From Spirochaetia bacterium (lineage in GTDB: Bacteria > Spirochaetota > Spirochaetia > SZUA-6 > Bin103), in NCBI GenBank assembly GCA_965203055.1, contig OZ241863.1:1344001-1408000 (forward strand): DNA of 64,000 nucleotides, given 5' to 3'. The notes under the pieces are model-generated. The model saw nothing but the letters and a program-made list of their open reading frames with translations, had not been told where the DNA came from and did not search any database. A program made the position numbers and the translations under genes. Each line of letters starts with the position of its first letter. Positions within the stretch are counted from its first letter, which is position 1. Below, piece by piece: positions 3,017-36,232 of this stretch.

Positions 3017-3128
3017 TACCGCATCGTAGCAGTACGATCCGGAGAGCGGCAATCAAGACCAGGCGGGGGCGGGCTATAGCGCTGAGTGCGGCCCGCCGGT
3101 GGGGCAGGACACCCGTAGCGGCCGGCTG

Positions 3129-4679
3129 CTACCACGTGGTGTGCGGGTCGGTGTAGGGGGAACGTTCGAAGCGGCAGTCCGGCTCGGTGACGCGGGGATC
3201 CTGCTGCGCGCGCAACGCCGCCAGCAGGCGGGAGGAAAGCTGCTCCCGGGTGGCGTCGCAGGCCGGGTCGCCGGCGATGTTGGTGAGGTAGTGGGGGTCG
3301 CGCTCCAGGTCGTACAGCTCCTCGGCGGGGAACTTGCCGAACCCCATCTCGAACAGCGCGCGCACCTCCGGCTCGGCGCGGTGATGCACCATCCACGCCT
3401 TCGACGGCGAACCGTCCAGGTCGGCGTAGGCGATCATGGTGTCCTCGCACAGCGACTCGAACGACGGCGGCGCGGCGCCGGGGTCGTCCAGGCCGCGCGG
3501 GTCGCCCATCGGCCAGCGCTCCGGCGCGAAGTTGCGAACGTAGAGATAGCGCCCGGTGCGAATGGCGCGTTGCGGGTAGGGCAGATTGCCGGCGCGCGCC
3601 CGCGCGACGTGGCGCTCGCGGCCGAGCACCACGTGGTCGCGGGCCGGGTCCACCAGCCCGGCGGCGGGCGATTCCAGCACCGGCAGCAGGCTGCGCGCCG
3701 TCATGCCCTCCGGCCGCGCGACCTGCGCCGCGTCGAGGAACGTCGGCGCCAGGTCCATCAGGTTGACGAAGTCGTGCACGATCCTGCCGCCCGGCACGCG
3801 GCCGGGCCAGCGCGCCGCCAGCGCCACCTCGCAGCCAAGGTCGTACAGGTTGCACTTGCCGCGCGGGAAGCCGGGAATGCCGTGGTCGCCGCTCACCACC
3901 AGCAGGGTGTCGTCCAGTTCGCCGATCTCCTCCAGCTTGGCGAGCAGGACGCCCAGGCCGGCGTCGACGGCCTGACACTCGCCGAGGTAGTCGCAGAAAT
4001 CCTCGCGCACGGCGTGCGCGTCGGGCAGGAAGGCGGGCAGACGCCCCTTGAGATCGTCCGGCTCCAGCCCCCAGAGCTGCTTGCCGGAGCCGCGCTGCCA
4101 CTTGCGGTGGGTGTTGGTCGGACCCCACCAGTAGCAGAACGGGCGCCCCGGCTCGCGCGCGTCGAGAAACGCCTGGAAGTTGTCGCGGGTCTCGTCGTAC
4201 AGGACCTGCTTGGCGCCCTCCACGCCGCGCTGCGGCGCAAGCTCGGAGGCGACGAACGAGAACTGGCCGAATCTGGTGCCGGCGGGGGCGTAGCGGGTGC
4301 GGTCGCCGCCGTAGGGGGCGTCGCGCGGGGTGCCCGGCGACCACACCTTGTAGGTGTAGCCAATGTGATAGCCGGCCGCCTCCAGCGCCAGCGGGTAGGA
4401 GGGGATGGAGGCGTCCCACTCGGCGCCCTGCAGGATCGCGCCGCGCCCGGTCTGCCAGAAGTAGCGGCCGCTCAGGATCGAGCTGCGGCAGGGGGTGCAG
4501 GAGGGCGCCGGCACGAACGCGTTGCTGAACAACGCCCCCTCGCGCGCCACCCGGTCGAAGTTGGGCGTGTCGATGACCGCGTTGGGCGTGCCGCCGCCCT
4601 GCAGTTGGCGGTAGGCGCCGGCGTAGCGCCCCCAATCGTCGGCGAACGCGAACACGATGTTGGGCCGGCGCCGCGCCAT
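3129..4679 (-). CDS. Formylglycine-dependent sulfatase
   Basis: RPNIVFAFADDWG, CTPCRSSILSGRY (CxPxR), SGDHG, EELYDLERDP. Confidence 0.92.
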   Translation of the reverse strand: MARRRPNIVFAFADDWGRYAGAYRQLQGGGTPNAVIDTPNFDRVAREGALFSNAFVPAPSCTPCRSSILSGRYFWQTGRGAILQGAEWDASIPSYPLALEAAGYHIGYTYKVWSPGTPRDAPYGGDRTRYAPAGTRFGQFSFVASELAPQRGVEGAKQVLYDETRDNFQAFLDAREPGRPFCYWWGPTNTHRKWQRGSGKQLWGLEPDDLKGRLPAFLPDAHAVREDFCDYLGECQAVDAGLGVLLAKLEEIGELDDTLLVVSGDHGIPGFPRGKCNLYDLGCEVALAARWPGRVPGGRIVHDFVNLMDLAPTFLDAAQVARPEGMTARSLLPVLESPAAGLVDPARDHVVLGRERHVARARAGNLPYPQRAIRTGRYLYVRNFAPERWPMGDPRGLDDPGAAPPSFESLCEDTMIAYADLDGSPSKAWMVHHRAEPEVRALFEMGFGKFPAEELYDLERDPHYLTNIAGDPACDATREQLSSRLLAALRAQQDPRVTEPDCRFERSPYTDPHTTW

Positions 4680-4683
4680 GGGT

Positions 4684-5415
4684 TCAGCGTCCCTGGACGC
4701 GGTGCATCTCCGCAATCAGCTCCGCGGTCGGCGGATAGTAGCGGCCGGGGACCGCTCCCTCGGCGCGAATCTTCTCCTTGGCGTAGTTCTCGGCCGCTTC
4801 GTGCTCCAGCGCCCACTCCAGCGCCGCCGCGGCCATCCACGACGGCACCACCAGGACGCCGTCGTTGTCGCCGACCAGCACGTCGCCGGGCCGCACCAGC
4901 GCGCCGCCGCACTGGATCTGGCCGTTCTCCTCGGCCGGCGCGGCCGCCAGGCCGCCGTGGAAGCTGCGCTGCCGGGCGTACACCGTCAGCCCGTACTCCT
5001 CGTCGACGATCACGTCGAGGTCGCGGATGGCGCCGTCCACCACCACCCCGTCGGCGCGGTTCAGCGCGAGCTGCAGCAGCTTGACGTCGCCGGCGACCAC
5101 GTCCTGGCGGGAGCCCATGATGTCCGCCACCAGCACGTCGCCCGGCCCGCAGCGGCCCATTGCCCGGTACTCCAGCTCGTCTTCCCCGCCGGTCCGCTCG
5201 CTCATCAGGTCGGGGCGCACCGGGAGAAACCTGAGGGTGCGCGCCCGCGCCGCGAACCGCTGCCGGCCCGGCGTGAGGTTGATCACTCCCTCGCAGACGT
5301 TGAGCGGGGAGCCGAAGTGGCACACGGCGCCGTACACCGTCGCGGTCGGAATCGACTTCAGCCCGTCCAGCACGGGCTGCGGCACTTGCGCCGGTCGCAT
5401 GTCGAATGCTGGCAT
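4684..5415 (-). CDS. RraA / HMG-aldolase family protein
   Basis: [53 protein letters not shown] 5415 follows TTGACC-18-TATCAT by 6 nt. Confidence 0.85.
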
Positions 5416-11659: not shown

Positions 11660-11802
11660 GAAGCAGGAAGAAGGAGCGGTCCGTTGCCGACAATCAAGGT
11701 GGCATGGTGTACTATCGGCGCCGTTACGGCGTGGGTCGGGTGGTCAGGAGGATTACCTTCGTCAGCGAAGTTGCGACGGCTACTGAAGGGAAGAAGGCCG
11801 AA

Positions 11803-12376
11803 TTGATAGAGCTTTCGAAGAAGGCGTCGGTCGTGGTCGCCGCGGCGCTGTTCGCGCTGTTGCTGGCAGCGTGCGTCGAAGTGGTAAAGACCGGACCGAA
11901 GGGCGACCCGGGGGAACCCGCCGCCCCTGCTCCGGTATTATCCGTCTGCGTTCCCGGAGACGACCCCATTGCGGTACCCACCACGATCGGCGCGGGCGGT
12001 TTCGTCAGGCGCCCGGGGAGCCCGCACGAGGGTACCTACGAACATCGGTTCACCCTGCCGGCGGACGACGTGCTGCGCGCTCGGGTGTGGATTCAGCGTC
12101 CCGGAGAGACTCACCCCAGCGCTCGCCGCCACATTGTCGGCGGGGACCACGCACGGCACCACCTACACGCTGGAAGTGACTCCCATGACCGGCAAGGTGC
12201 AACTGCATCTCGTTGGCCACGGATACGGCCACGAATTGCCCCCCTCGCCGCCGCCGATAGTGGAGCGGATCGAGCAGCGTCTCGCAAGCTCGCACCCCGG
12301 CGCCGCGGTACTGGATTACGCGGTGGCCGCGCTCGCCGGCGTCAGGGTGTACGTACGCGTCTGTCCCCCCGCATGA
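11803..12376 (+). pseudogene. Probable frameshifted lipoprotein of unknown function
   Basis: Lipobox LLLAAC and GPKGDPGEP in one frame. Protein-like sequence continues in the +1 frame (ERLTPALAATL...VRVCPPA*) after ~12100. Confidence 0.4.
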
Positions 12377-12416
12377 CGGCCACGCCGGCGCGGCGCCTCA
12401 TGCGCGCCGGCGCGGG

Positions 12417-13280
12417 CTACCGCAGTCCGGGCACCCAGTTCAGCGCGATCGGCTCGGCCGCGCCGGCGTAGTCGATCTCGAACGGGCGCAACGCCGCGGC
12501 CAGTTCCGGCGCGGCGCCGGGCGGCAGCCGGTTGCCGCGCTCCACCGACGCCACCGTGGCTTGCGTGCGTTCCGGGAGGTCGGGGAACGCCGGGTAGTAC
12601 CACATGGTGAGGCAGGTGCGGCGCGCGCCGCTGCCATTGGCGTGGGAGGCGTGAAACAGGGTGCCGTACCCGACCACGAAGTCGCCGGCGCGCAGCGGTA
12701 CGTCCACTTCGTCGGCGTAGCGCGCGAACGCCGGATTGGCGCCGGGCGCCCGGTACTTGCGGTTCTCGTCGGTGTGCTGCTCCGGCACCAAGTCATGCAG
12801 CGCGTGGCGTCGCAGGTGGGAGCCGGGGACCACGCGCAGGCAGCCGTTCTCCGGGGTGGTGTCGGTCAGGTAGAACATCAGGAACGCCTGGATCGGGACG
12901 GGGGTGTAGCTCACCGGGTCGTTCCAGAAGCGGCCATCCTCGTGCCAGAACAGCGGCGGGCTGTGCGGCGGCTTGCTGATTACCCGCCCGTGGCCGAACT
13001 TGGGGGCGTGGAACCCCAGCCTCGCCAGCGCCTGCAGGATCGGCGGATAGGCGATGAACTCCGCGAACACCGGGTAGCGTTCGATGAACGGGCCGTTCAC
13101 CAGGATCATGCTGCCGGTAGCCACCTGCTCGGCAAAGTGGCGCTCGTCCTGCTCCGCCAGACTGGCGTCACTGGCCTCCCGGAGGCGGTCCAGGAGCCCC
13201 GCGTCCAACACGTCACGAAAGATGAAGAATCCGTCCCGATCGAACCGAGCCCGTTCCGCGCTCACGGTCGCCGCAGCCAT
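12417..13280 (-). CDS. Phytanoyl-CoA dioxygenase (PhyH) family protein
   Basis: FDRDGFFIFRDVL, LFWHEDG, ENGCLRVVPGSH, LFHASHAN; leaderless promoter TTGATT-17-TATGGT-6-ATG. Confidence 0.9.
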   Translation of the reverse strand: MAAATVSAERARFDRDGFFIFRDVLDAGLLDRLREASDASLAEQDERHFAEQVATGSMILVNGPFIERYPVFAEFIAYPPILQALARLGFHAPKFGHGRVISKPPHSPPLFWHEDGRFWNDPVSYTPVPIQAFLMFYLTDTTPENGCLRVVPGSHLRRHALHDLVPEQHTDENRKYRAPGANPAFARYADEVDVPLRAGDFVVGYGTLFHASHANGSGARRTCLTMWYYPAFPDLPERTQATVASVERGNRLPPGAAPELAAALRPFEIDYAGAAEPIALNWVPGLR

Positions 13281-13311: not shown

Positions 13312-13955
13312 TCAATGCAGACGTTGCGACGCGGCGGGGATTGAACTTGCGGTATCGCAGGACGCGCTGGCCCCGGCGGCCTCCGGCAGGCGCAGCACGG
13401 TGGTCGGACGGGTGGTGGTGACCAGCCAATCGATCAACTCGACGCGCAGCTCCTCCACCGCGGCGCAGTGCCGCGGCAGCGGGGCCAGGTTCTCCTGCTC
13501 CCACGGGTCTGCCCCCAGGTCGTACAACTCGGCGAAGCCGCGCTCCTCCCACTCGGCGCCGAAGCGGGCGAACATTCCGGCCGGGTAGTGCACGTAGCGG
13601 TAGGGGCCGTTGGGTGCGAACTCGGTCACCGCGATGTGGCGCACGGCGCCGCTCCGCCACGCAGCAGAAGGCCCAGGTCGTGGCCGTCGCCGGTCTCCAG
13701 GGCGTCCACTCCGGCCAGGGCGCTGACGGTGGCGGCGAAGTCGACGCTCTCCACCAGCTCGCCGGCCACGTGACCGGCGGGAAAGCGGCCCGGCCAGCGC
13801 CAGATGAACGGCACCCGGGTAATGGCGTCGGAGCATATCCCGGCGCCTTCTCCATGATCCCGAACTCGGCGGCGTAATCGCCGTGGTCGGACGAGTAGAC
13901 CACGATGGTGTCGTCCGCCAACCCGGCGTCATCCAGGAACTGCAGAAACTCGCCG
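13312..13955 (-). pseudogene. Sulfatase C-terminal remnant, frameshifted and 5'-truncated
   Basis: Consecutive sulfatase segments lie in different frames: DDTIVVYSSDHGDY..MEKAPG / VPFIWRWPGRFPAG..VESVDFAAT / ELYDLGADPWEQENL. No N-terminal CxPxR region is present. Confidence 0.8.
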
Positions 13956-14004
13956 TCAATGGCTATGTTTTACAACGGACAAACCTTACACTTACGTTCT
14001 ACCT

Positions 14005-17000
14005 GTGATAACCACGCATTTCGAGAAGTCCCCTAGCCCGCGTATCGTTCGGTCTGCGGAGGACGAGATCACGGCGATTCAGAGGCTTCTCTCTGATGTT
14101 TACCGGGACACCGGTGATGGGCGAACGCTTCTGCGCGAACTCATGCAGAATGCCGATGACGCGCAGGCGTCGCGGCTGGCGTTTGCCGTGGTCGATCAGG
14201 GGCTGCGTAATCCCCAAAACACTCTGCTTGGGGGGCCAGGGCTGATGGTCGTGAACGACGGCTCGTTTCTCGAGCGAGACCAGCGTGCCCTGCATCAAGC
14301 CATAGGAGACGCCAAGTCCGCCGACACGGAGAAGATCGGCCGGTTCGGGGTGGGTCTCAAGAGCGTGTTCCACGTCTGTGAGGCGTTCGTCTACCTCGGA
14401 GCAGAACCCAGAGAACCCGGACCCCCTACGCTCAGGCCGGGCGCCCTGAATCCATGGGCCGGCACCGGACAGGACGGCGACCAGGACCTGCTCCACCCCG
14501 ACTGGGACACCTTGGAACCCAGCGATGCGCAGGTCCTGTTGGACGCCGCCCGAGCAATCATCGGGTTCTTCACTTGCGGACTGCTGTTGTGGATTCCGCT
14601 GCGACGCCGGGCGCATCTCGACCGAGCCCAAGAGGGAGAGCAGGACGGTTTGGGGACAGACCTCGTCGATCCCAAACATGTTGTTACCTGGTTCAGGCAT
14701 CCAGATTCCCTGGCCCTGGTCCTCGCCCAGTGCGGACACCTGCGCTGTGTGGAGGCATTCCGCGCCGACACGATACCGGCATTGGACCCGCGCACCGCTC
14801 TGGTTCGCATCGACCGGCCCTGTTTCGAGAGGCGTTCGTGGGTAGGACGGTACCGTGATGATGACGTTCGTCGTACACGCACACGCACGTTCAAGGGGAT
14901 TATCCGCGCTGGCGACCAGAAGTGGTCCGTGGCGGGCGTCGATGCCGTTGGTCACAAGCGCCTGCGCGAAATCAGAGTGGCGTCAGATTGGCCAAAAGAT
15001 CGGGTTTATGTCGACGGCCGCCGTGATCGGGTTCCGCGCAAGGCGTTAGCTCACGCAGCTATAACCGTGCTGCACCGGCCGGCGGCTGCAACCGGCGGAG
15101 TACGCCTGCGCTGGGCCGTGTTTCTGCCGCTTGATGATGCTGTTAAACAGCCTTACGGGCCCCTCATTGAGACGGTAGAATGCGCCTCCAGCACGGGTTG
15201 GTGGGACATCATCATGCACGGCTACTTCTGGCCGTCCCACGACCGAAGATCGATCCCAGGCGTCACGGACGACGAATCGAGCGTACGAGGCCGGTGGAAC
15301 CGCGGCATCCGCGACGATCTGATGTTGCCGCTGCTTCCGCAAGCGCTCGAATTTGCGGTCCGCGATGTTCCGCAGGATGTCGCGGGCAGGCTGCTGGGTG
15401 CGGTCGACCGTACGGAGATCGTACGGAGAAACAACGCCGCCATCACGAAGAACCATGTGCTTCTGCCTGTTGTTACGGAATGTGGTATGAGGTGGAAGAC
15501 CTACCGTACCGATGAGGCGCGTGTGGTGGCCATTCCGTGGAAGGACGCTCCGAGCAGCGTGCGCAAGGCGTTCGTACGGCGAATCGACAGAGCCTCCGAC
15601 GTCATCTGCATCGACGACGCCGCACCGAGGATCGGGGGAACCCCGCGCGCTTGGCCCGCGGATTTGCTATGCGGTCTGTTGAGCTGCGTGTCCGTTGACT
15701 TGCTGCGAACGCCGCTGGGGTTAGCCTGGGTAGAGCATTGCATTAAGTCCGTCCTTGAGCGGCAGCACGACGATGACGACGACGCACGCCGTACGTCTGC
15801 GCGGCATCTGCGCCTTGCAGGTGGACGTCAGCGGACCGGGCAGGTTGCGGACTGGCTTGCAGAGAGGATCGGAGAAGGTGCGCTGACCGCTTGCTTCGAC
15901 AGCCCACCGGACACTCGACAGAATCTAAGGAAAACATGGCGGCGAGTGTACGAACGCCTGCCGAAAGAGTGGCTGATACCCGCTCCTGTCGAGAGCCAGC
16001 GCGCGGTTGTCGAACTCGCGGACGCGAAAGCTGTGGGTGCCGGGTTGTTGCCGATTCCGTTTGGGGTTCCGCGGGAGACGGCTGCGGCACACCCTGATCC
16101 GGAGCGACTGGACGGCGCCCTGCGGACCTTGGGGATTCTCTTGAGAAGAGAAGGGCTGCAAAGCGAGCATGACGCCCGGCTGATTCTGGCCGAGACCCTC
16201 CTCGCCATCCGTGATGCCCGGACCCTCGGTAATCAACTCGCCCAGTTGCCGCTGATTCGGGCGCTCTGCCTTCCCGAAGGAAGATACGAAGCGTGGTCCC
16301 AAGGCGATCTGCATCGGCGGGTCGCAGAACATCGTGTGTTCGCCCGCGGAGACGAACCATCGTCCGATCAAGTGGACGCCGGAGGTGGGGACGGTGTCGA
16401 TCCCGCTGGGGTACGGACCGGACGAGCTGGGCGGGCGGCCCGGCAACCCCGGCAGGCCGTCAAAGAACTCGCCGAGGCAGTCTGCAGCAGCTTCTGGCTT
16501 GTCCGTAGCATGCCCGCAACAGCGAAGGTGCGTCCGGTCAGTAATGAGGCTCTGGCCGGCGCACTGCTCCATGCCAAGGCGATCAGCAAGGACCCGGAGC
16601 CGAGAAAATCACTCTTAAGCGCTTTGGCCGCCGGAGCCGTAGGCTCGCTGGTCGGACGTGCCATGCGTGTGCTGCTCACCGGCGTGATGGCGGGTGGCTT
16701 AGAAGAGTGCGACATCTACCACGTTCGCAGCCGGGATAATCGAAGAACGCTGGACATTCTGCTCGGCGTCCGGCGCGAGTCATGGCGCGTCGCAGAGCCG
16801 AAACTGATCGATGCCCTTCCCCAACTGTTCGCCAGTCTGAGAATAAAGGAGATTGATCCGGGGGTGCTGCAAGAATTACTCCGGGAGACGTTGGATAAAT
16901 CCTCCGATGATGACTGGCAGCTCCTTCCGGAACCGGACGTGCTCCATCTGCTAAAGCACTTGTATGGGACAGATCGCGCGTTGTGGCGCGCAATGCCGCT

Positions 17001-20000
17001 GCACAAGAGGATCACGGGCGACCGCGGGCGCCTCGACGACCAGACCGCGCGCGCAACGGGAGGAGGTCGGCTGCCGTCCGAGCTTGAAACGGAAGTTATC
17101 CTATTGGAGCCCGATGATGAAGTCGCGGGCCTGTACCTCGACGTTCCGAAACTCGATGATGACGGCGTCCTGCGCATGATGTTGGAGAACGAGCATCCGC
17201 AGCGGTTCGTCAGATATATTATCGATCGACTCCGGTCGGACGGAGACCAGATCATTCTGCCGAATAACCGGCAGCTGCGCGATCTGCTCAAGAGCTGCCC
17301 GTGGCTCCCCGACCGTGACGCATACCTCGGCATCGCTCCGGGGCGACTCCTGTGTATTCCGCCGGAGCTACTGGCCTTGGTCGCCCCTCTATCCGCGGCG
17401 CTTGACGGGCATCGGCTTTCTTCACATGTTGCCCCCGATTGCTGGTCCGTCGCCAAGGACGTTGTGCACGAGATACTCGGGAGACCTAGCTCCGCGACGC
17501 AGGTTGAACGCTTGGCCGATGGGCTCGATACGGACGCTGTCGCTCAAGTTGAATCAGGAGCCTACCTCATTCTGCCTCACGCCGGCGATGTTGACCAACA
17601 GTTGATCGAGGATGCACTTCGGTCTCCGCTCGTCGAATCTCACCCCGGCTGGAAGATCGTACGAACCGCGGCGAATCTCGCGGGAATTACGGGCGGCCGG
17701 GTGCCTCGCGCCGTTTCGCGCCTGGCATGCGCTCTCTGTGCCCCGGTCCCTTCTGACCGCCAGTTGTCTACGCTGCAGCAAATTGCAGACTCGTGTCCCG
17801 GCAAGGACTCTCCCCCCGGCCGTCTGTTCCGCCGCTTGGTCGAGAAGTACGCCGAGGCCGATAACTTATTCTTCCAGAAAGTATTACCGTGTATCATGTT
17901 GCCGACTCAGGACGGCAAATGGCGGCGGGCTTCGAAAATAGCCCAATCGTCGTTCGGTGTCGCGCGGCACCACCGGATATTGAAGGACCTTCGCCGCGCC
18001 CTTCGACTTGATGACGGCGAGTCGGTCGGGAAGGAAGCCTCCGGTAAAACAGTGGTCAGGTCGGGAGAGACATCGGACTACGTGTTCGATCAGTACTTCA
18101 AGCCGTGGAAGGGGCGTCTCAACCGCGGCGCCGTCGGGGCGCTATTGAGTCTGTTCGGGAATGGCAACAGGATCGAGTTGCGCAGCGCCGACAACGAAGG
18201 CGCTATGCGACGGCTTGCCCAGAGTTGGCTCGGCGAAGTGGACGTTTCAGAAGTGCGGCGAAATTTGACCGGCGCCGATGAAGCTCCTTTTTCTACCGTC
18301 CCCGTGTTCGTTGTAGGGAGCAAGGAAGACGGGCGGGTCACGGCGGTCAATATCCTGGGCAACTCGGTAAGTATGACGGCTGACCGGGACAACAAAACCA
18401 TCTTCGCGACCGCCCCTAAGCGGGACAGGGCGGGTTTCTGGGAGGTCACACTGCGCCACGTGGAGCCCGCGAAGCACAGCGCGCAAAAACTCTACGAGAT
18501 GCTTGGCACGACCATCGAACTATGGGCAGTTAAGTACCTTAAAATCGACCGTCGCCGGATGCTGGAGTGGTGGCGGCGGTGGGGGACAGGCTCGCAGGCT
18601 CAGGTGGAACCGGTGAGAGCCCTGATTCTGGCCAATCTTCCCCTTACGCTCAGGAGGCTCGACGTGCGCGAGTGCCCAGCGTTGCAGGCCGCCGTCACAG
18701 ACGCGGAGCGGGCGCAGAGAAGGCGTGGACAGGCGGCCGGGCAGGAGCCGTATGCCGACCCCGCGAAGCGGGCGCTTGATCGTCTTGCATCGCTCATAGG
18801 CAAGCCCGAGCACAGCGATTTCCTGAGGGGACGAGTCCGGGACCGGATGGAAAGTTCCGGCTACACGGCCGAAAGCACCTTGCTGGAACTGGTGCAGAAT
18901 GCGGATGACGCGCTGGCGCAGGCGCGCGAGATCGCGGGACGCGAGCTATCGAAGGACGCGCGCAGCGTTGTGGTTCGCGTCGATGAACACGTCGGGCAGC
19001 CAACTGTCGACCTCAAGCACTTCGGGCGCCCGATCAACGACACCGGCGACGCCGAGTTTCTCGCCAGGCAGGATCGGGATCGGGAATGGGATCAGGACCT
19101 CTATTTCATGATGCTGATGGATCTAACCGCAAAGCCGGGCGAAGCCTCGGGGTCAGGAGCAGTGGCGTCGACGACCGGATGCTTCGGTCTCGGATTCAAG
19201 TCAGTCCACTTGGTTTCCGACGCTCCATCGGTGGTCAGTGGGTATATCGCCTTCTCCATCGCTGGCGGCCTGCTGCCAAAAGAGGAGCAAATCCCGGACG
19301 ATCCGGACCTGGAGTCGGTGGACGGCCAGCAGGTTACGCGTATCCGTCTGCCCCTGCGCCACGACGATGACTTGATTACCCGGATGTTCTGTCGCTTCTG
19401 CCACACCCGGTTCTTGTTACCCGCCTTTGCTAGAGAACTCCGGGAGATCGTGGTCGAGGGTGGGCCGTGGCCTGGAGTCAGTGTCTTCGACTGCGAACCG
19501 GTCGCAGGAGCACCGGGATGGTCCGTCGCCAGAACACCTGCCGAGCTCCCGAACGGCGGGTCGTGGCGCATCCTGCGCTTCCGGCCCGGCGGCGCGGAAA
19601 CCGGCACCGCGGCGCTCGTCCTGGGCCTCTGCGATGAGATGCCGGCTCCGTTCCCGCCCGACGTGTCGTTCCTCTGGAACGTAACTCCCACCACGGAGCT
19701 CTGGGGCTGCGGGTACGCAGTCAACGGACCATTCAAGCTCGACCACGGCAGGACACACGTCGCGCTGGATCACGAGAACACCCGGCGCGCGGCCATTCAG
19801 CTCGGCGAAGCGCTTGGAAAGGGGCTTGTGGCACTGCACGATGCGCTCGCCAATGATGCGGGGCCGGCATGCGGCCTGCCCGGAAGAGAGGGCGTCGCGA
19901 CCTTTACCGCGGCCCTCTGGAATGTGCTTTCTTCCGGAGTCGACACCGAAGATACCCTCCGCCGCGACTTCCTTGGCTGGCTACAAGGTCTGGGCAGCGG

Positions 20001-21690
20001 AATCTCGGCGTGGATGTTCGCCCGCTCTGTGGTGCCGTCGAAACTCCCGGCACCCTTCGGCAAACAGCTTCCGCCGTTGGCGTCGGTCAGGCGGCTGGAG
20101 GACATGCGGATCGAGTTCGTGGAGAACGGCGACTTGTGGCGCGCTGTCGCCGGTATCGAGGATCTGGCCCAGCTGGCGCGGAACCATCTGGTTGTTTCGG
20201 ATGCGGTAGCGGAGCGTCTGCGCCGGCTGTTGCCGAGGATCGAGATTAACCCGCTACAACCGATGGATCTCTTCAGGGAGCTGGTGGAGAGTTGGAGCCA
20301 CTGCCTTACACCGGAACGGCTGCATGCGCTGCGGCCAATCGAGCCGGAGCATGTCTGGAAGATGATCGGCGCCGAGTGGCCCACGAATCTTGTCGCTCAA
20401 TCGGTCGCCGGGGCGTTCGTTCCTTTGCGCGAGCTGTTGCTTCCACCGGGCCCGGAGACATCGGACGACGAGCCGAAACGCGCGGCGTTCGCTCCCGACG
20501 CGCACGTCCTGGACAGCGCCTACACACCCGAGGACGCGGCGGTGTTCCGCCGGCTGCGGATGCGGCTCCAAATCGATTCCGCCACCATGGCCGCCTGGTT
20601 CACCGACATCGACGACTCCAAGCGTCCCGCTGCGCTGCGATATCTGTTACACGGCAACCTTCAAAACGAAATCCTGGAGAAGCTCGTCCCATCCGAGACC
20701 CGGCCGCCATGGCTGAGCGACCATAGCGACGTAAGCCGTATGGTCGATGGCCTGAGCGACCCCTGGCGATGTGAATCTCTCCTTATCGCTCTGTTCCCTG
20801 ACCACGGGCGAAGCGCACCGGACACCCCAGGCGACCCTGAGACCGACTTCGCGCTCCACACTCACCCGCCGCCCGAGGACTTCTTTGAACGACTCCAGGA
20901 TTGGTGGGACGATTCGAGCAACCGACAAGTCGTCCTCGGCCGTCACGAGACGGAGACTTGGCCCGATTGGCTCAGAAGGGGCCGTATCGACCGTGATCTC
21001 GGTCAGGACTCCCACGACCATTGGCTTGCGCTGCTCGTCTTGGGTGCCTGCCAGGGACTTGGCCGCTCGGGGCTAAAACAGCACCGGGGTTTTCTCGAGG
21101 CTGCCCACCGCAAAGGATGGTGGAAGGTGTTCAAGCGGCCCAGCGAACCCGCAGACTGGATGGAAGTGCTTCGCTCCTGGCATGACAGCGCCGTGGACAC
21201 CTTAGAGTACTCATACTGGATGTCACTCTTTCCGACCATCTACTTGCTCAGTCGCTATCTGCGCAAATACCGGGACTTGTTGCGTACAGCAGATCAACGT
21301 CCGAATCTCGACGATCTGACACGGCTTCTGGCCCCTCGGAGCGATTCAGCGCTGAGCGGCGCCGGCCGCATCTTCGATGCGCCGCCAGCGCCGCTCAACA
21401 TGGGTTTACACTGGATCCTGCGCGAACTCGTACGGCTTGATGTTCTCGGCCGCGTTGAACACCTCTTGCCTTACTGCTGGGTGCCGTCGGACCAGGTACT
21501 CCGCTTCCTCGAGCGTCTTGGTCTTCCGTATCCTGAGAGCAACGCCTCCAACTCCGACAAAGCGCGGGCAGTGTACAACTTTCTTGAGCCGAGATTGAGG
21601 ACGCCACATCTTCATTACGCATTCGACATTCCGCTGCGCTACGTTGCCACCAATAAATACCTGCAGCGAAAGCTCGGTTTGTCGGACTGA
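14005..21690 (+). CDS. Giant protein (2561 aa) with two sacsin-like (Hsp90/GHKL-type) ATPase modules
   Basis: Module 1: TLLRELMQNADDAQA..VVNDGSF..IGRFGVGLKSVFH (~14.1-14.4 kb). Module 2: TLLELVQNADDALAQ..HFGRPIN..TGCFGLGFKSVHLVSD (~18.9-19.25 kb). Uninterrupted 7.7-kb ORF; exact start uncertain. Confidence 0.8.
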   Translation: MITTHFEKSPSPRIVRSAEDEITAIQRLLSDVYRDTGDGRTLLRELMQNADDAQASRLAFAVVDQGLRNPQNTLLGGPGLMVVNDGSFLERDQRALHQAIGDAKSADTEKIGRFGVGLKSVFHVCEAFVYLGAEPREPGPPTLRPGALNPWAGTGQDGDQDLLHPDWDTLEPSDAQVLLDAARAIIGFFTCGLLLWIPLRRRAHLDRAQEGEQDGLGTDLVDPKHVVTWFRHPDSLALVLAQCGHLRCVEAFRADTIPALDPRTALVRIDRPCFERRSWVGRYRDDDVRRTRTRTFKGIIRAGDQKWSVAGVDAVGHKRLREIRVASDWPKDRVYVDGRRDRVPRKALAHAAITVLHRPAAATGGVRLRWAVFLPLDDAVKQPYGPLIETVECASSTGWWDIIMHGYFWPSHDRRSIPGVTDDESSVRGRWNRGIRDDLMLPLLPQALEFAVRDVPQDVAGRLLGAVDRTEIVRRNNAAITKNHVLLPVVTECGMRWKTYRTDEARVVAIPWKDAPSSVRKAFVRRIDRASDVICIDDAAPRIGGTPRAWPADLLCGLLSCVSVDLLRTPLGLAWVEHCIKSVLERQHDDDDDARRTSARHLRLAGGRQRTGQVADWLAERIGEGALTACFDSPPDTRQNLRKTWRRVYERLPKEWLIPAPVESQRAVVELADAKAVGAGLLPIPFGVPRETAAAHPDPERLDGALRTLGILLRREGLQSEHDARLILAETLLAIRDARTLGNQLAQLPLIRALCLPEGRYEAWSQGDLHRRVAEHRVFARGDEPSSDQVDAGGGDGVDPAGVRTGRAGRAARQPRQAVKELAEAVCSSFWLVRSMPATAKVRPVSNEALAGALLHAKAISKDPEPRKSLLSALAAGAVGSLVGRAMRVLLTGVMAGGLEECDIYHVRSRDNRRTLDILLGVRRESWRVAEPKLIDALPQLFASLRIKEIDPGVLQELLRETLDKSSDDDWQLLPEPDVLHLLKHLYGTDRALWRAMPLHKRITGDRGRLDDQTARATGGGRLPSELETEVILLEPDDEVAGLYLDVPKLDDDGVLRMMLENEHPQRFVRYIIDRLRSDGDQIILPNNRQLRDLLKSCPWLPDRDAYLGIAPGRLLCIPPELLALVAPLSAALDGHRLSSHVAPDCWSVAKDVVHEILGRPSSATQVERLADGLDTDAVAQVESGAYLILPHAGDVDQQLIEDALRSPLVESHPGWKIVRTAANLAGITGGRVPRAVSRLACALCAPVPSDRQLSTLQQIADSCPGKDSPPGRLFRRLVEKYAEADNLFFQKVLPCIMLPTQDGKWRRASKIAQSSFGVARHHRILKDLRRALRLDDGESVGKEASGKTVVRSGETSDYVFDQYFKPWKGRLNRGAVGALLSLFGNGNRIELRSADNEGAMRRLAQSWLGEVDVSEVRRNLTGADEAPFSTVPVFVVGSKEDGRVTAVNILGNSVSMTADRDNKTIFATAPKRDRAGFWEVTLRHVEPAKHSAQKLYEMLGTTIELWAVKYLKIDRRRMLEWWRRWGTGSQAQVEPVRALILANLPLTLRRLDVRECPALQAAVTDAERAQRRRGQAAGQEPYADPAKRALDRLASLIGKPEHSDFLRGRVRDRMESSGYTAESTLLELVQNADDALAQAREIAGRELSKDARSVVVRVDEHVGQPTVDLKHFGRPINDTGDAEFLARQDRDREWDQDLYFMMLMDLTAKPGEASGSGAVASTTGCFGLGFKSVHLVSDAPSVVSGYIAFSIAGGLLPKEEQIPDDPDLESVDGQQVTRIRLPLRHDDDLITRMFCRFCHTRFLLPAFARELREIVVEGGPWPGVSVFDCEPVAGAPGWSVARTPAELPNGGSWRILRFRPGGAETGTAALVLGLCDEMPAPFPPDVSFLWNVTPTTELWGCGYAVNGPFKLDHGRTHVALDHENTRRAAIQLGEALGKGLVALHDALANDAGPACGLPGREGVATFTAALWNVLSSGVDTEDTLRRDFLGWLQGLGSGISAWMFARSVVPSKLPAPFGKQLPPLASVRRLEDMRIEFVENGDLWRAVAGIEDLAQLARNHLVVSDAVAERLRRLLPRIEINPLQPMDLFRELVESWSHCLTPERLHALRPIEPEHVWKMIGAEWPTNLVAQSVAGAFVPLRELLLPPGPETSDDEPKRAAFAPDAHVLDSAYTPEDAAVFRRLRMRLQIDSATMAAWFTDIDDSKRPAALRYLLHGNLQNEILEKLVPSETRPPWLSDHSDVSRMVDGLSDPWRCESLLIALFPDHGRSAPDTPGDPETDFALHTHPPPEDFFERLQDWWDDSSNRQVVLGRHETETWPDWLRRGRIDRDLGQDSHDHWLALLVLGACQGLGRSGLKQHRGFLEAAHRKGWWKVFKRPSEPADWMEVLRSWHDSAVDTLEYSYWMSLFPTIYLLSRYLRKYRDLLRTADQRPNLDDLTRLLAPRSDSALSGAGRIFDAPPAPLNMGLHWILRELVRLDVLGRVEHLLPYCWVPSDQVLRFLERLGLPYPESNASNSDKARAVYNFLEPRLRTPHLHYAFDIPLRYVATNKYLQRKLGLSD

Positions 21691-21692
21691 CT

Positions 21693-24368
21693 ATGCGACT
21701 TCCACCGGATTCAGTGGTCCGGCACGCGCGGTTCGGCCGGGGTCAGGTCATTATAGACGATGGCCGGAGCGTGGTGGTCCGTTTCGAACACAGTATCGAG
21801 GATTGCCTTCGGACCGACCTGGAATTGCTGCCCGGCTTATCCGAACGGGCAGCAACTGCCCAATTCGACCCCGCCGTCAACGTGGTAACCCGCATTCTGG
21901 GCAACTGCATCCTGTCGGTGAACGACTCGTGGGGCGTCTTTTCCTGTTCCCGAATTACGCTGCTTCCGCACCAGCTTTGGGTGTGTAAGCGCGTGCTCGA
22001 GTCGTGGCCGACGCGCTGGCTCGTCGCCGACGATGTCGGCCTTGGCAAGACCATCGAGGCAGGCCTGATTCTTACGCCCTTGCTGTCTTCCGGTCGTGTC
22101 CGTCGCCTTCTTATCCTCGCTCCGGCAAGTCTGGTAGAGCAGTGGCAGATGCGTCTGCGGGAGATGTTCGACATCCGCATCCCGATATACGCCGCCGCAG
22201 CCGACACGCCGAGGTCCGACTACTGGAACACGACCGACAAGGTAATAGCTTCTGCGCATACGCTGCGCATGAACACTGGCAACCGCTGGGAGCGGCTCAC
22301 GGAGGCGGCGCCTTGGGACTTGATACTGGTAGACGAGGCGCATCACATGAACGTCGACGAACAGCACGGACGTACGCTGTCCTTTCAGCTCATGGAGCGC
22401 CTCCATCGGCATGCCCGCGTCCGGTCACTGGTCCTGTTCACGGGTACCCCGCATCGCGGCAAAGATTACGGATTTCTCTCTTTGCTCAAGCTGCTGCGCC
22501 CCGCCGAATTCGACCCGCAGAAGCCGCTCGAAGCGCAGTTGGGAAAGCTCCGCAGTGTGATGATCCGCAACAACAAGCAGCGCGTCACGGACATGGAGGG
22601 TCGGTCGGTCTTCCTGCCGGTACGGCCGCGCAGCGAAACCTACTCCTATTCTCCGGAGGAGGAGCGGTTCTACGCGATGCTCACCAATTTCATCCTCAAA
22701 GGAAAGGCATACGCTGCCGGCCTTGGTCAGCGGCAGCGGCGTATGGCGATCTTGGTACTGATCACGATGCAGAAACTGGCCTCTAGCTCGATCGCTGCCG
22801 TGCGGCGTGCCCTCGCCGGGCGCCTGGCGCGACTTCACGGCACCAAATCGAAGTTGGAGAATGCCGTTCGATACCGGCGGCGTATCGAGGAGCTGGAGGC
22901 CGAAGACGACGCCGCCAATCAGGACGAAATATCCTGGCTGGAGGAGCTGTTCCTCGACAGTGTCGGCGATGCGATCAAGCTGAACCCGAACGAAATTCCG
23001 GCGATTGAAGAACTTCTTGCCGCCGCCGACGACGTAGACCAGGAGACAAAGGTAGCGCGCATCCTGAACGTGGTTGACCAGCAATTCCCAGGTCGCTCGG
23101 TGTTGTTCTTTACCGAGTACAAGGCGACCCAGGCACTGCTGATGAGCGCCTTGCATGCCCGATACGGCGACCGCTGCGTCACTTTCATCAACGGCGACGG
23201 ATTTATCGACGGAGTAAAGGATGCGACGGGACGCGAGTCGAAGATAACCGACGATCGACGTGAGGCCGCACGTCGGTTCAACGGTGGAGAGGTCCGCTTC
23301 CTCGTCTCTACCGAGGCAGCGGGCGAGGGTATCGACCTGCAGGAGTGCTGCAGCGCACTGATCCATGTCGATCTGCCCTGGAACCCGACGCGTCTGCATC
23401 AGCGGGTCGGGCGGCTGAGCCGTTACGGGCAGACCGAGCCGGTCGACGTGGTGACGGTACGCAACCCGGAAACTGTTGAGAGCCGGGTCTGGGAGTGCCT
23501 GGACCGGAAGCTCGATCGGATTACGCTAGCCTTTCAGGGAGCGATGGAAGACCCGGAAGACATGCGCCAACTTGTGATCGGCATGGCGTCGCCGAGGATG
23601 TACACGGACGTGTTCGCCAGCGCCCCCGATCTGCGCGGCGAGCGTCTGGAAGAGTGGTTCGATTCGAAGACTGCGACCTTCGGCGGCGAAGATGCGGTGA
23701 AGACCGTCGCCAGCATGTTCGGGAACGTCGCTCGGTTTGATTTCGGGGAGGCGGCCGCCCAGATTCCCAAAGTAGACCTCCCTGACCTGATCCCGTTCTT
23801 CAAATCGCTATGCGCCATGCTGCGTCGGCGGCCGACGCGGATCGACGACGTTCGCCTGGAATTTCATACGCCGCAGGAGTGGACGAAGGACGACTTTACG
23901 ATCGCTGATCACTACGCGCTACTGTTCGCCCGAGAGTCGCGCCCACGGGAGGGGGAAGACATCGCCGGGATCGGGCTTCGGGTGGTGGACCGGGCGCTGC
24001 GTGCGGCCGTTGACGCTACGGAATCGCTGGCGGCCATGCGAGATTTGGCCGGCCCCTTGGTCGTGTTCGCCCTTCGGGATCGGATCACCGGTTCGGAGCG
24101 CACGGTGCGTAAAACTGTCGTTGGCATGCAACGCGCTCACGATGGAGCCTGGGGGTTGCTGAGAGACTGGGAAGTGCTGAAACTCTTGAACCCGGCTGCC
24201 GACAGACCGCGCAGTACCGTGTTCGATGCCAAGCCCTCAGGGCAGGTGGGTGTAGCGGCGCTCCTGACCGAGGCCGAGCAGCACCTGGAGGCGCGGCTCG
24301 ACGACCTGAATTTACCGTTTCAGCTGCCTGTGATGGAGCATCTCGCCTGTCTGATTCCCGGACACTGA
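21693..24368 (+). CDS. SNF2/RapA-type superfamily 2 helicase
   Basis: LLPHQ, WLVADDVGLGKTIEAG, LVDEAHH, FTGTPHRG, STEAAGEGIDLQ, DLPWNPTRLHQRVGRLSRYGQ. Starts 2 nt after the sacsin-like stop. Confidence 0.92.
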   Translation: MRLPPDSVVRHARFGRGQVIIDDGRSVVVRFEHSIEDCLRTDLELLPGLSERAATAQFDPAVNVVTRILGNCILSVNDSWGVFSCSRITLLPHQLWVCKRVLESWPTRWLVADDVGLGKTIEAGLILTPLLSSGRVRRLLILAPASLVEQWQMRLREMFDIRIPIYAAAADTPRSDYWNTTDKVIASAHTLRMNTGNRWERLTEAAPWDLILVDEAHHMNVDEQHGRTLSFQLMERLHRHARVRSLVLFTGTPHRGKDYGFLSLLKLLRPAEFDPQKPLEAQLGKLRSVMIRNNKQRVTDMEGRSVFLPVRPRSETYSYSPEEERFYAMLTNFILKGKAYAAGLGQRQRRMAILVLITMQKLASSSIAAVRRALAGRLARLHGTKSKLENAVRYRRRIEELEAEDDAANQDEISWLEELFLDSVGDAIKLNPNEIPAIEELLAAADDVDQETKVARILNVVDQQFPGRSVLFFTEYKATQALLMSALHARYGDRCVTFINGDGFIDGVKDATGRESKITDDRREAARRFNGGEVRFLVSTEAAGEGIDLQECCSALIHVDLPWNPTRLHQRVGRLSRYGQTEPVDVVTVRNPETVESRVWECLDRKLDRITLAFQGAMEDPEDMRQLVIGMASPRMYTDVFASAPDLRGERLEEWFDSKTATFGGEDAVKTVASMFGNVARFDFGEAAAQIPKVDLPDLIPFFKSLCAMLRRRPTRIDDVRLEFHTPQEWTKDDFTIADHYALLFARESRPREGEDIAGIGLRVVDRALRAAVDATESLAAMRDLAGPLVVFALRDRITGSERTVRKTVVGMQRAHDGAWGLLRDWEVLKLLNPAADRPRSTVFDAKPSGQVGVAALLTEAEQHLEARLDDLNLPFQLPVMEHLACLIPGH

Positions 24369-24450: not shown

Positions 24451-26043
24451 GTGGCGCGTACGTTCAATACCGCAGGTCCGGTGGTGGCCGCGGACCATTA
24501 TTGCATCCCGCCGCTGGAACGGATCGATCTCGCCACCGTGCTCGGCTTGATCCGCGACAAGAAGTACTTCGTGCTGCACGCGCCGCGCCAGACCGGCAAG
24601 ACCTCGGCGCTGCTGGCGCTACGCGATCTGCTGAACGGCGGCGAGCACGGCGATTTTCGCTGCGTGTACGCCAACGTCGAAGCCGGCCAGGCGATGCGCG
24701 AGAACGTGGCGGAAGGCATGCGCACGGTGCTTGCCGAACTGGCGCTCCAGGCCAGCGTGACGCTGGGCGACGAGACGCTCGACGAACTCTGGCCCGGCGT
24801 GTTGGAGCGCGTGGGGCCGGGCGCGGCATTGCGGCACGCGCTGCTGCGCTGGAGCATGGCCGACAGGCGCCCGCTGGTGTTGCTGATCGACGAGATCGAC
24901 GCGCTGGTCGGGGACACCCTGCTGGCGGTCCTGCGCCAGTTGCGCGCCGGCTACGCCGACCGCCCGGCGCGCTTTCCGCACAGCATCATCCTGTGCGGGG
25001 TGCGCGACGTGCGCGACTACCGCATCCATTCAAGCGCCGAGAACCGGGCCGTGCTCGGCGGCAGCGCCTTCAACATCAAATCCGAATCGCTGCGGCTGGG
25101 CGATCTTTCGCCGCAGGAGACGCGGGCGCTGCTGGCGCAGCACACCGCGGCGACCGGGCAGGGGTTCACGGAGGGGGCGCAGGCGCTGGTCGGCGCGCGC
25201 ACCGCCGGCCAGCCGTGGCTGGTGAACGCGCTCTGCTACGACGCCTGCTTCCGCCACCCGCCGGGGTGCGACCGCTCGCGTCCCATCACCGCGGCCGCGG
25301 TCCTGGAGGCGCAGGAGCGGCTGATCCTGCGCCGCGACACCCACATCGACGATCTGGGTCACAAGCTGCGCGAAGAGCGCGTGCGGCGCGTGGTGGAGCC
25401 GATTCTGACCGGCGCCGACCGGCAGGCATGGTCGGCCGAGGATGTCGCCTACGCGCGCGACCTGGGACTGGTGGCGCAGGACGCCGCCGGCACGCCGCGC
25501 ATCGCCAATCCGATCTACGCCGAAGTGGTGCCGCGGCACCTCAACTACGCGGTGCAGGCGGGGCTGACGCAACAGATGGCGTGGTACGTAGGCGCGGACG
25601 GCGCGCTGGACGTGGCAGGCCTGGTCGCGGCGTTCCAGGAGTTCTTCCGCGAGCACTCCGAGCACTGGGTGCAGCGCTTCGAGCGGTACCACGAGGCCGG
25701 GCCGCAGTTGCTGCTGCAGGCGCACCTGCAGCGCATCGTCAACGGCGGCGGGCGGATCGAGCGGGAGTACGCGCTGGGGCGCGGGCGCACCGACCTGCTG
25801 ATCGTGTGGCCGCAGGGCGGGCGCGAACGCCGCTTCGTGGTGGAGTGCAAACTGCTGCGCAAGGACCTGGAACGAACCATCGCCGAGGGGGTGGAGCAGA
25901 CCCGCGGCTACATGGACCGCTGCGGCGCGGAGGCAGGACACCTGATCGTGTTCGACCGCGCCCCGAACCGAACCTGGGCCGACAAGATCTTCCGGCGCGC
26001 GCCGGCGGGCGGCGGCGCTCCGGTCACGGTCTGGGGAATGTAG
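24451..26043 (+). CDS. AAA/P-loop ATPase with C-terminal PD-(D/E)XK-like domain (copy 1)
   Basis: HAPRQTGKTS (Walker A), LLIDEID (Walker B), REYALGRGRTDLLI..VVECK; GGAGGAG RBS. Confidence 0.85.
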   Translation: MARTFNTAGPVVAADHYCIPPLERIDLATVLGLIRDKKYFVLHAPRQTGKTSALLALRDLLNGGEHGDFRCVYANVEAGQAMRENVAEGMRTVLAELALQASVTLGDETLDELWPGVLERVGPGAALRHALLRWSMADRRPLVLLIDEIDALVGDTLLAVLRQLRAGYADRPARFPHSIILCGVRDVRDYRIHSSAENRAVLGGSAFNIKSESLRLGDLSPQETRALLAQHTAATGQGFTEGAQALVGARTAGQPWLVNALCYDACFRHPPGCDRSRPITAAAVLEAQERLILRRDTHIDDLGHKLREERVRRVVEPILTGADRQAWSAEDVAYARDLGLVAQDAAGTPRIANPIYAEVVPRHLNYAVQAGLTQQMAWYVGADGALDVAGLVAAFQEFFREHSEHWVQRFERYHEAGPQLLLQAHLQRIVNGGGRIEREYALGRGRTDLLIVWPQGGRERRFVVECKLLRKDLERTIAEGVEQTRGYMDRCGAEAGHLIVFDRAPNRTWADKIFRRAPAGGGAPVTVWGM

Positions 26044-26048
26044 CGCGA

Positions 26049-26909
26049 ATGGCCCTTGCGGCAACGGAAGCGCTCGGCAAGCGAGATGAGCTGGTAGCGC
26101 GCGGCTACACCTCGATTCCTGGGGTAATGCCGCCGGCGATGGTGGCGGAGTTGCGCGCGTGGTCGGACGCCATCTTCGCCCGCACTCACGTGCGCTACTC
26201 GATCCGCTATCAGGGCAGCGATCTGTTCGCGCACACCGGGCGCGGGTGGGCGGCCATGGCGCCGGAGCGGAGGCGGCAGGCCGAGGCTGATCCGCGCCGG
26301 TTTCGCGATCCCTGGGCGGAACGGATCATCGGCCTGCCGGCGCAGGCGGCCGCCTGCCGCGCGCTCGGACTGGAGGAGCTGCGCGCCGATGAGGTGGTGA
26401 TCATCCTGTCCAAGCCGGCCCACGGCCCGCCGCTCTATTGGCATCAGGATTTCATGCAGTGGCACAGCCCGAGGGCGGCCACGCCGTGGCCGACGCGCAT
26501 CTTCCTTTCCTACTACCTGGTGGACACGACGCGGGAGAACGGCTGCCTGCGGGTCATCCCCGGCAGTCACCGCAAGCGCCACCGACTGCACGATCTCCCT
26601 GACGCCCACGGCGAGGAGCTGCAGGCGCTGGAGGACCTGTCCCATCCGGCGTTCTCCGACGACCCCGACGCGGTGGACGTGCCGTTGCGCGCCGGCGACC
26701 TGCTGATTGCCGATGCCCGCCTGCTGCACGCCGCCTGGCCCAATCGCACCGACCGGCGCCGCACGCTGCTCCTGGCTTGGCACGACGTGTTCTCGTTTCC
26801 GCGCCCGCCGAGCTGGTGGCGCGGCGACGTTCCCGCCGCCGTCCGCAACGCCGATCCCGCCGCGCGCTACGAGAACAGCGTCCGCACCCCCAGCCACTAC
26901 CTCACCTGA
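26049..26909 (+). CDS. Phytanoyl-CoA dioxygenase (PhyH) family protein
   Basis: PPLYWHQDF, ENGCLRVIPGSH, LLHAAWPN. Confidence 0.88.
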   Translation: MALAATEALGKRDELVARGYTSIPGVMPPAMVAELRAWSDAIFARTHVRYSIRYQGSDLFAHTGRGWAAMAPERRRQAEADPRRFRDPWAERIIGLPAQAAACRALGLEELRADEVVIILSKPAHGPPLYWHQDFMQWHSPRAATPWPTRIFLSYYLVDTTRENGCLRVIPGSHRKRHRLHDLPDAHGEELQALEDLSHPAFSDDPDAVDVPLRAGDLLIADARLLHAAWPNRTDRRRTLLLAWHDVFSFPRPPSWWRGDVPAAVRNADPAARYENSVRTPSHYLT

Positions 26910-26922
26910 AAGTCGCTGCATT

Positions 26923-36003: not shown

Positions 36004-36232
36004 GCTCTGGGTGCTCGGCATCGGGCCGGTCAATCAAGACGCCGCGAGCCGCCAACGGTCGAGCCGCTCGGTCACTTCGGGTTGTGGCAGCCTGCAGCGT
36101 GGATGATCGCTGATCGCCTTGAGGGTGGAGTATAGCGTGCCGCGATCGATTACGTTGGCCTCCAGGGCGCGGAGGGGCAAACCTGCCGCAGACCGAGCCT
36201 GCTTGGGCCGGCTATCGATAAAGCCGCGCCAT

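Follow-up and report, generated by a model that had tools for sequence, protein, structure and literature searches.

A mobile two-gene cassette of a double-headed sacsin-type ATPase and an SNF2 helicase in a Spirochaetia genome

Introduction

A human neurodegeneration protein, the plant protein NO VEIN and the bacterial defence protein Tiamat are linked by their sacsin-clade ATPases, of whose mechanism little is understood. The text of the preprint on Tiamat describes an anti-phage protein of this clade that is both an ATPase and a DNase. According to the same text, the C-terminal effector is exchanged among Tiamat-like proteins, and roughly one in three of them has a helicase as neighbour, Swi/Snf proteins included (10.64898/2026.09.30.754977). 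Here we describe a two-gene cassette, made up of a gene for a giant ATPase with two sacsin-type heads and a gene for an SNF2-family helicase, that lies in a 64,000-nucleotide stretch of the genome of a Spirochaetia bacterium (NCBI GenBank assembly GCA_965203055.1, contig OZ241863.1, positions 1,344,001 to 1,408,000 of the forward strand). This whole stretch is called the window below, and coordinates refer to it unless another sequence is named. We place the cassette among the helicase-partnered Tiamat-like ATPases and assign it neither to Tiamat nor to DISARM or Hma. It gives the sacsin clade a compact bacterial form that is widespread (855 cluster representatives for the tail domain) and combines three parts, namely two non-identical heads in one chain, a predicted glycosylase fold and a dedicated SNF2 motor. 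A role in protecting the host against invading DNA appears likely.

DNA glycosylases also serve in defence, and Brig1 is reportedly a glycosylase of this kind that stands alone. Stand-alone "Dag" glycosylases from the helix-hairpin-helix (HhH) superfamily defend against phages with modified DNA, as described in the text of a preprint that contains no occurrence of ATPase, helicase, SNF2 or fused (10.1101/2025.10.29.685425). In the text of the Tiamat preprint (10.64898/2026.09.30.754977) no two-headed protein from a prokaryote is mentioned and the terms "two ATPase", "glycosylase", "HhH" and "DrmD" do not occur, and its figures and supplements may bear on this. A term search of the ARMADA preprint (PMC12458937) gave no mention of sacsin, GHKL, Hsp90, MORC or glycosylase. 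An earlier note, drawn from the letters of this DNA alone, had put the pair forward as a candidate undescribed module. This calls for a qualification. For the cassette as such we found no published description in the literature on sacsin, Tiamat/DrmD, anti-phage glycosylases and defence islands, but the Tiamat preprint text notes that Tiamat-like ATPases in general can have helicases as neighbours.

A strict two-gene cassette

The cassette and its parts are located as follows.

14005..21690, plus strand: giant sacsin-type ATPase with two heads; open reading frame (ORF) with a GTG start, 2561 amino acids (aa); Pfam SACS
14095..14394, plus strand: ATPase head 1 (aa 31-130), with N-box ELMQNADDA and G2 box GRFGVGLKSV
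15412..18771, plus strand: middle region (aa 470-1589), without recognisable domain and with the lowest conservation
18862..19239, plus strand: ATPase head 2 (aa 1620-1745), with N-box LELVQNADDA and G2 box GCFGLGFKSV
20902..21687, plus strand: tail domain (last 262 residues of the giant), predicted fold like that of HhH DNA glycosylases; AlphaFold2 model with a predicted local distance difference test (pLDDT) of 91.5 and a predicted template modelling score (pTM) of 0.91
21693..24368, plus strand: SNF2-family helicase/translocase, 891 aa, ATG start; Pfam SNF2-rel_dom and Helicase_C

The stop codon of the giant gene and the start codon of the helicase gene are 2 nt apart (TGA-CT-ATG), as had been read earlier. 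Linkage of the two genes was probed from both sides, with the helicase as query on one genome per species and with the tail domain (an 11-sequence alignment) as query on metagenomes. The helicase query returned 11 loci at 48-76% identity, including ones from Opitutales, Acidimicrobiia, Gammaproteobacteria, Gemmatimonadota, Desulfobulbia and Desulfovibrionaceae, and the giant gene lies immediately upstream in all 11, with only the last ~160 residues of the giant visible at the contig end of one (L003). The tail query gave 25 metagenome loci, and the helicase is immediately downstream in 24 of the 24 that could be assessed; the 25th contig stops 205 bases past the tail match. Five plasmid records also carry the tail domain, and both genes are present in all four that were inspected. 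The co-occurrence of sacsin-type and SNF2 genes that the earlier note had suggested looking for in homologous neighbourhoods was found in each of these three sets. In most loci the two genes either overlap by 4 nt, as on two Deinococcus plasmids, or lie within ~10 nt of each other.

No third conserved gene was found in 39 genome and metagenome loci, the exceptions being near-identical elements and an HNH gene that two loci share. The pairwise identities of the last 700 residues of the giant and those of the helicase are strongly correlated (r = 0.97; 325 pairs from 26 loci; reached by none of 999 permutations), which indicates joint inheritance of both genes, although the figure is inflated by relatedness among the loci. 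The helicase is the slower-evolving partner, with a mean pairwise identity of 60% against 41% for the last 700 residues of the giant. The pair is a strict, self-contained two-gene cassette.

The gene that follows the helicase in two loci is a homologous gene of ~420 aa directly at its 3' side (L002:12817-14076 and L078:9797-11071). The L002 copy has an HNH endonuclease domain and may be an optional nuclease accessory.

A giant ATPase with two sacsin-type heads

The giant protein carries two sets of sacsin/GHKL motifs, the first with QNADDA at aa 48 and FGxGxKSV at aa 114 and the second with QNADDA at aa 1631 and FGxGxKSV at aa 1727. Both sets are intact and are spaced 1583 aa apart, close to the ~1,600 aa given in the earlier note for the same 2561-aa frame. 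Pfam SACS matches the protein in two stretches (E 2.5e-26), as does NCBIfam P_loop_sacsin (103 bits, cut-off 50). The stretches that encode the N-boxes of heads 1 and 2 share 84% DNA identity (repeat scan, family D1), and a profile comparison of the two head modules aligned 88 columns, corresponding to the ATP-binding half of the Bergerat fold, with a probability of 95.6%. Because the similarity of the heads spans only these 88 columns, they do not amount to a long duplicated repeat. Among 37 full-length family members, residues E45, N49, D51, D52, N84, G112, G115 and G117 of head 1 show conservation of 90% or more, and residues E1628, N1632, D1635, G1725, G1728, G1730 and K1732 of head 2 are invariant. 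By this conservation across diverse members, both ATPase heads are under strong constraint.

Nine homologues from other phyla match the giant protein over its full length at 25-52% identity. Conservation reaches its minimum in the middle region, both in a 10-sequence alignment and in comparison with a congener (G001), and for this region (aa 470-1589) there were no Pfam matches at E up to 5 and no usable matches in the ESM Atlas. Two plasmids have the giant naturally split into two genes with one head each: in Trichormus variabilis plasmid C the products are 828 and 1853 aa long, in Sphingomonas pC33 1607 and 799 aa. These split variants fit two modules that work together.

The giant resembles Tiamat in having an Hsp90/sacsin-like GHKL ATPase with its catalytic glutamate, here present twice (E45 and E1628), and the PADLOC TmtA models match both heads (best E 3.4e-22). 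However, the TmtA models align only over their first ~100-150 of 1300-1650 positions. The DUF3684 core of Tiamat found no Pfam counterpart in the giant, SACS being the only family matched at E up to 0.1 in a search where HMMER could miss a very remote relative. There is likewise no match to the DUF3883/NOV_C nuclease of the PD-(D/E)xK type, and the C-terminus has a predicted HhH glycosylase fold instead. Tiamat is also a single-gene system, whereas the giant described here stands beside an SNF2 gene in all the assessable loci counted above.

With eukaryotic sacsin, which has three repeated regions, the giant shares the presence of several Hsp90-like heads in one very long chain, and among solved structures head 1 is matched best by the SR1 domain of sacsin (5v44-5v47, E ~3e-17). 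It differs from sacsin in that Pfam detects no J, HEPN or ubiquitin-like domain in it, in the restriction of the similarity between heads to 88 columns, and in a partner and a predicted tail that would act on DNA.

The SNF2 helicase compared with DISARM and Hma

The helicase has the full set of motor motifs (GLGKT at 116, DEAH at 214, TGTP at 250 and QRxGR at 570) and a mean column identity of 76% in an alignment of 12 homologues. Among solved structures RapA is nearest to it (E 1e-40), with an alignment confined to the motor lobes, and PADLOC scores it at 242 bits for BrxHI and 214 bits for HmaA. SNF2 motor lobes of this kind are shared with RapA, BrxH, HmaA, DpdE and ZorD, but the matches extend to the motor alone and leave out the N-terminal 85 and C-terminal 277 residues (aa 1-85 and aa 615-891). 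Both end domains are conserved within the family and gave no Pfam match at E up to 5 and no usable Atlas match.

The PADLOC DrmD model PDLC02634 matches the helicase from end to end with 948 bits. DISARM consists of DrmA, DrmB and DrmC together with either DrmD and DrmMI or DrmE and DrmMII. The pair on Trichormus variabilis plasmid C, whose helicase is 49% identical to the window helicase over its full length, stands beside drmABC and a C5 methylase (the adjoining genes being the C5 methylase, drmC, a DUF1998 gene and drmA). The curated NCBIfam models, however, match over the motor only and score far below their cut-offs, with 270 bits for DISARM_DrmD (cut-off 610) and 148 bits for DrmD_b (cut-off 950). 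The window holds no drmA, drmB or drmC, which among the inspected loci were seen only beside the Trichormus copy, and PADLOC gave no DrmA, DrmB or DrmC match at E 1e-8 or better among 132 flank ORFs of 28 related loci. No methylase (DrmMI or DrmMII) is adjacent to the pair. The DUF1998 genes of the genome are at 2.03, 2.57, 2.62 and 4.45 Mb and the pair is at 1.36 Mb, a distance of at least 660 kb. The PADLOC comparison proposed at the outset therefore yielded an end-to-end DrmD match next to which the core DISARM genes are absent, and canonical DISARM was rejected on account of the sub-threshold NCBIfam scores and the remote DUF1998 genes.

An Hma system (DUF1156/DUF499) extending over 14-36 kb of the window was also considered. 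HmaA, the helicase of Hma that bears a DUF3883 nuclease, matches the helicase over the motor only (positions 100-649 of 1176). The nearest methylase is an HmaB/DUF1156 gene on the other strand, separated from the pair by ATPase, FG-GAP and ABC-transporter genes, and the DUF499 (HmaC-type) genes of the genome are all at least 128 kb away. The Hma reading was rejected, as HmaB is unlinked and the DUF499 genes are distant. The suggestion that this DUF1156 gene at 33-36 kb supplies the methylase of the system is likewise not supported, given the opposite strand, the intervening genes and the complete lack of DUF1156 or other DNA methylases among 68 Pfam-scanned flank ORFs of the 11 genome loci.

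The HmaB/DUF1156 adenine methyltransferase gene itself (33169-36033, minus strand, 1429 bits) is an orphan without HmaA or HmaC nearby. It is accompanied by a DUF433 gene (36233-36562) and a gene with a helix-turn-helix (HTH) domain (38175-38654).

A predicted DNA glycosylase fold in the tail

A profile search with the tail among 1.84 billion proteins found 855 cluster representatives, of which 750 reached an E value of 1e-10 or better. The match lies at the C-terminal end or at most ~60 residues from it in all 150 representatives listed, and many of the proteins are 2,400-2,800 aa long. Their source names include "hypothetical protein" and "Sacsin/Nov domain-containing". An AlphaFold2 model from 11 sequences was of moderate quality (pLDDT 75.5) and already indicated HhH DNA glycosylases; with 33 sequences the model reached a pLDDT of 91.5 and a pTM of 0.91, and each of the five models scored at least 89.6.

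The predicted model was compared with 48,161 solved chains. HhH-superfamily glycosylases fill 21 of the top 23 places among the structural matches (Z 10.5 to 5.4), and the other two are entries for the related queuine-salvage enzyme DUF2419. Thermotoga Ogg is the best match (Z 10.5, root-mean-square deviation 3.6, 188 residues aligned), followed by endonuclease III (Z 8.4), MagIII (8.3) and OGG1 (8.0), and NTHL1, Mag1, MutY, AGOG, ROS1, AlkA and TAG are also among these 23. All 23 cover the whole tail domain, and row 24 falls to Z 4.6 over 93 residues. The Z values on their own would be middling for a helical protein, but the assignment is made credible by the uniformity of the family, by the full coverage and by the drop after row 23. 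On this model the tail is credibly a two-lobed, all-helical HhH DNA glycosylase fold, which agrees with an earlier suspicion that the last ~250 aa might hide a DNA-recognition fold. A language-model search with the tail also returned clusters with AGOG (10% of members) and DUF2400 (33%), which are independent weak leads. Foldseek found no match of the tail among viral models.

Twelve tail residues are invariant in 37 members (W2300, W2301, W2340, F2363, W2385, W2405, G2467, R2473, E2474, R2477, P2494 and P2543), and H2360, Y2422, G2452, G2454 and D2541 are nearly so. The segment LGxGxxF[VI]LRELxR looks like the hairpin-helix when read off the alignments. The position expected for the catalytic aspartate would correspond to D2496 (in VPSDQ), which is acidic in 8 of 10 close homologues and variable in the wider family; this tentative equivalence with the glycosylases comes from reading the alignments. 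As far as the preprint text describes them, the Dag proteins are free-standing, whereas the glycosylase-fold domain considered here is the tail of a 2561-aa ATPase.

Horizontal acquisition and insertion site

The cassette has a G+C content of 62.3%, as compared with 69.8% in the left flank, 71.2% in the right flank and 68% in the whole window. Third-position GC is 0.71 and 0.75 in the two genes and 0.84-0.95 in most neighbouring genes. Two features mark the left side.

13312..13959, minus strand: sulfatase remnant, 5'-truncated and frameshifted, forming the left insertion edge (tblastn and three-frame translation)
13960..14004, plus strand: AT-rich leader before the giant gene, 40% GC

The low-GC block, its AT-rich start and the cut-off sulfatase had all been noticed from the letters, and all three are borne out by these values. 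A consensus scan found no sigma-70-like promoter in the leader. Translation of the sulfatase remnant gives the pieces DDTIVVYSSDHGD ... LYDLGADPWEQENLA across three frames, and the spread of its C-terminal half over three frames implies at least two frameshifts. By tblastn the remnant matches residues 255-352 of the 528-aa sulfatase encoded at 3129-4715, its missing 5' end faces the cassette, and the stretch is 92% identical in DNA sequence to a paralogue at 4.276 Mb in the same genome. The right edge is indicated by another genome of the genus (G014), in which PfkB and PhyH genes are followed by an AAA_22 gene. The gap between PhyH and AAA_22 is 1455 bp there and 11.1 kb in the window, which places the right insertion edge just before 24453. 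A search of the cassette edges and flanks found no tRNA, integrase, direct repeat of at least 14 nt, or promoter- or terminator-like site.

The tail domain was found in just two members of a 401-genome sample of the phylum, the genome of the window being one of them. Five of the 11 genomes of the genus encode a helicase homologue (E 1e-100 or better). Congener G001 has an intact helicase gene, 85% identical, at another chromosomal site (L047, G001:C1:5347000-5366999); G008 and G014 have a divergent variant of the pair with helicases that are 45-48% identical (tblastn), and G003 has helicase pieces only. Loci related to the pair come from at least eight phyla. The Sphingomonas pC33 copy lies inside an IS3-flanked island with HEPN, HicB and WYL genes. 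No copies of the pair were found in viral contigs or phage records. The cassette was horizontally acquired and is mobile.

PADLOC matches occur in the flanks of 7 of 28 related loci, and the window itself has a PglX-like gene and the orphan HmaB methylase, which add to the defence context of the pair. In two Desulfovibrionaceae loci (L010 and L011) the cassette is directly downstream of type I-G (I-U) cas7 and cas5/6 genes; the first also has a NERD-UvrD gene and the second relaxase/MobC genes.

Function and alternative explanations

We propose that the pair is an autonomous, horizontally acquired two-gene cassette whose most likely task is methylase-free protection against invading DNA, a reading that we hold with somewhat better than even confidence. 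The SNF2 protein would be a DNA motor and the giant an ATP-operated clamp or sensor, and the two proteins may act as a physical complex. The two unlike sacsin-type heads could close together within one chain, much as the heads of GHKL dimers do in other families, while the poorly conserved middle region would act as a scaffold or sensor. The tail with its predicted glycosylase fold would attach to DNA and test it for unusual bases, which it might also excise. The DNA-directed two-gene module that the earlier note had in mind is retained in this proposal as a conserved and mobile pair with DNA-acting parts, some copies of which lie in defence islands or on plasmids; the link to a methylase is not. 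If an anti-phage role is true, glycosylase-based sensing of modified DNA would be joined to ATP-driven clamps and translocases, and the end-to-end "DrmD" match at loci without DISARM core genes would be accounted for.

A more specific version, possible rather than probable in our estimation, is a modification-sensing immunity similar to that of type IV systems, in which an ATP-gated, single-chain double-GHKL clamp is loaded onto or driven along DNA by the SNF2 protein and the tail flips, and possibly excises, hypermodified bases. With hypermodified bases as the target, no methylase would be needed to mark self. Were this version true, nothing in prokaryotes would come closer than the cassette to the multi-headed architecture of eukaryotic sacsin.

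Several results weigh against protection by a cassette with a glycosylase-like tail. Most flanking genes in the related loci are housekeeping genes, and Pfam scans detect no nuclease domain in the giant or the helicase. The fold that the tail is predicted to share with HhH-GPD glycosylases was not matched by Pfam (none of 33 members hit PF00730 or any other family at E up to 10), by hhalign against 19 endonuclease III-like proteins (probability 0.1) or by the tail profile among PDB sequences (no match at E up to 10). Foldseek against the PDB placed Thermotoga Ogg at the top, with E values of 0.44 and 1.1 that are not significant. By alignment reading, the wider family does not conserve an acidic residue where the catalytic one would be expected, so that the tail may only bind DNA. 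In congener G001 the giant gene is broken, with a change of frame near residue 1851-1863 and one stop in the second piece, which indicates that the cassette can be lost.

The lack of a detected nuclease domain and the catalytic aspartate that alignment reading finds unconserved across the family would both suit a non-cutting action, in which a MORC/SMC-like clamp and a motor compact or trap foreign DNA, or strip proteins from it, and the tail is a dead DNA anchor. MORC-type GHKL clamps act through topological entrapment, which counts in the same direction. The invariant R2473, E2474 and R2477 and several tail tryptophans, however, fit a working pocket equally well, and TAG, an HhH glycosylase, is active without the canonical aspartate; we regard the non-cutting reading as unlikely. 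We would also call it unlikely, to the same degree, that the pair is no autonomous unit but an add-on to larger systems with a YprA helicase, such as DISARM or ARMADA, and is stranded here, possibly as a non-functional remnant. The full-length DrmD match and the Trichormus plasmid locus with its drm genes would be expected under such a reading, but the 39 loci have no conserved neighbour, DrmA, DrmB and DrmC gave no match among the scanned flank ORFs, the DUF1998 genes are remote, DISARM_DrmD stays below its cut-off, and both genes are intact here with all their motifs.

Genome maintenance is the least likely of the alternatives. The pair would then serve repair or transcription-coupled surveillance, with a lesion sensor akin to a glycosylase and a motor akin to RapA, and this would be consistent with the predicted DNA-repair fold of the tail, with the RNA-polymerase-associated RapA as nearest solved relative of the helicase, with mostly housekeeping neighbours and with the absence of copies from viral contigs and phage records. 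Its sparse and patchy spread in the phylum, its foreign composition, the differing insertion sites in one genus, plasmid copies between insertion sequences and the decaying congener copy are disfavouring observations, because housekeeping repair genes do not show such spread, mobility and decay. Methylase-free protection against invading DNA remains the reading that we prefer.

Neighbouring genes in the window

The left end of the window holds part of a gene for a full-length PglX or type IIG-like methyltransferase of 1213 aa (PADLOC PglX, 1627 bits), which occupies positions 22-1920 and extends upstream to G000:C1:1342279 (L102:16279-19920). Over the 16 kb upstream of it, the 11 ORFs that were scanned gave no PADLOC match, so that no other BREX gene was found there. 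It is followed by a YhgA-like transposase gene at 1904-3052. The PfkB-PhyH interval on the left of the cassette contains an ORF of 255 aa (11704-12471) without Pfam matches, and the corresponding gap in G014 is 42 bp. On the right of the cassette, the only long ORF past the AAA_22 gene is on the minus strand at 25908-26921 (337 aa, no Pfam or PADLOC matches), and the coding phase of third-position GC switches after the AAA_22 gene (26044-26921). The AAA_22 gene next to the cassette (24451-26043) belongs to a multicopy family with a second copy in the window at 61705-63273. Each genome of the genus has dozens of ~1.6-kb copies at ~70-89% DNA identity, which are sometimes arranged in tandem.

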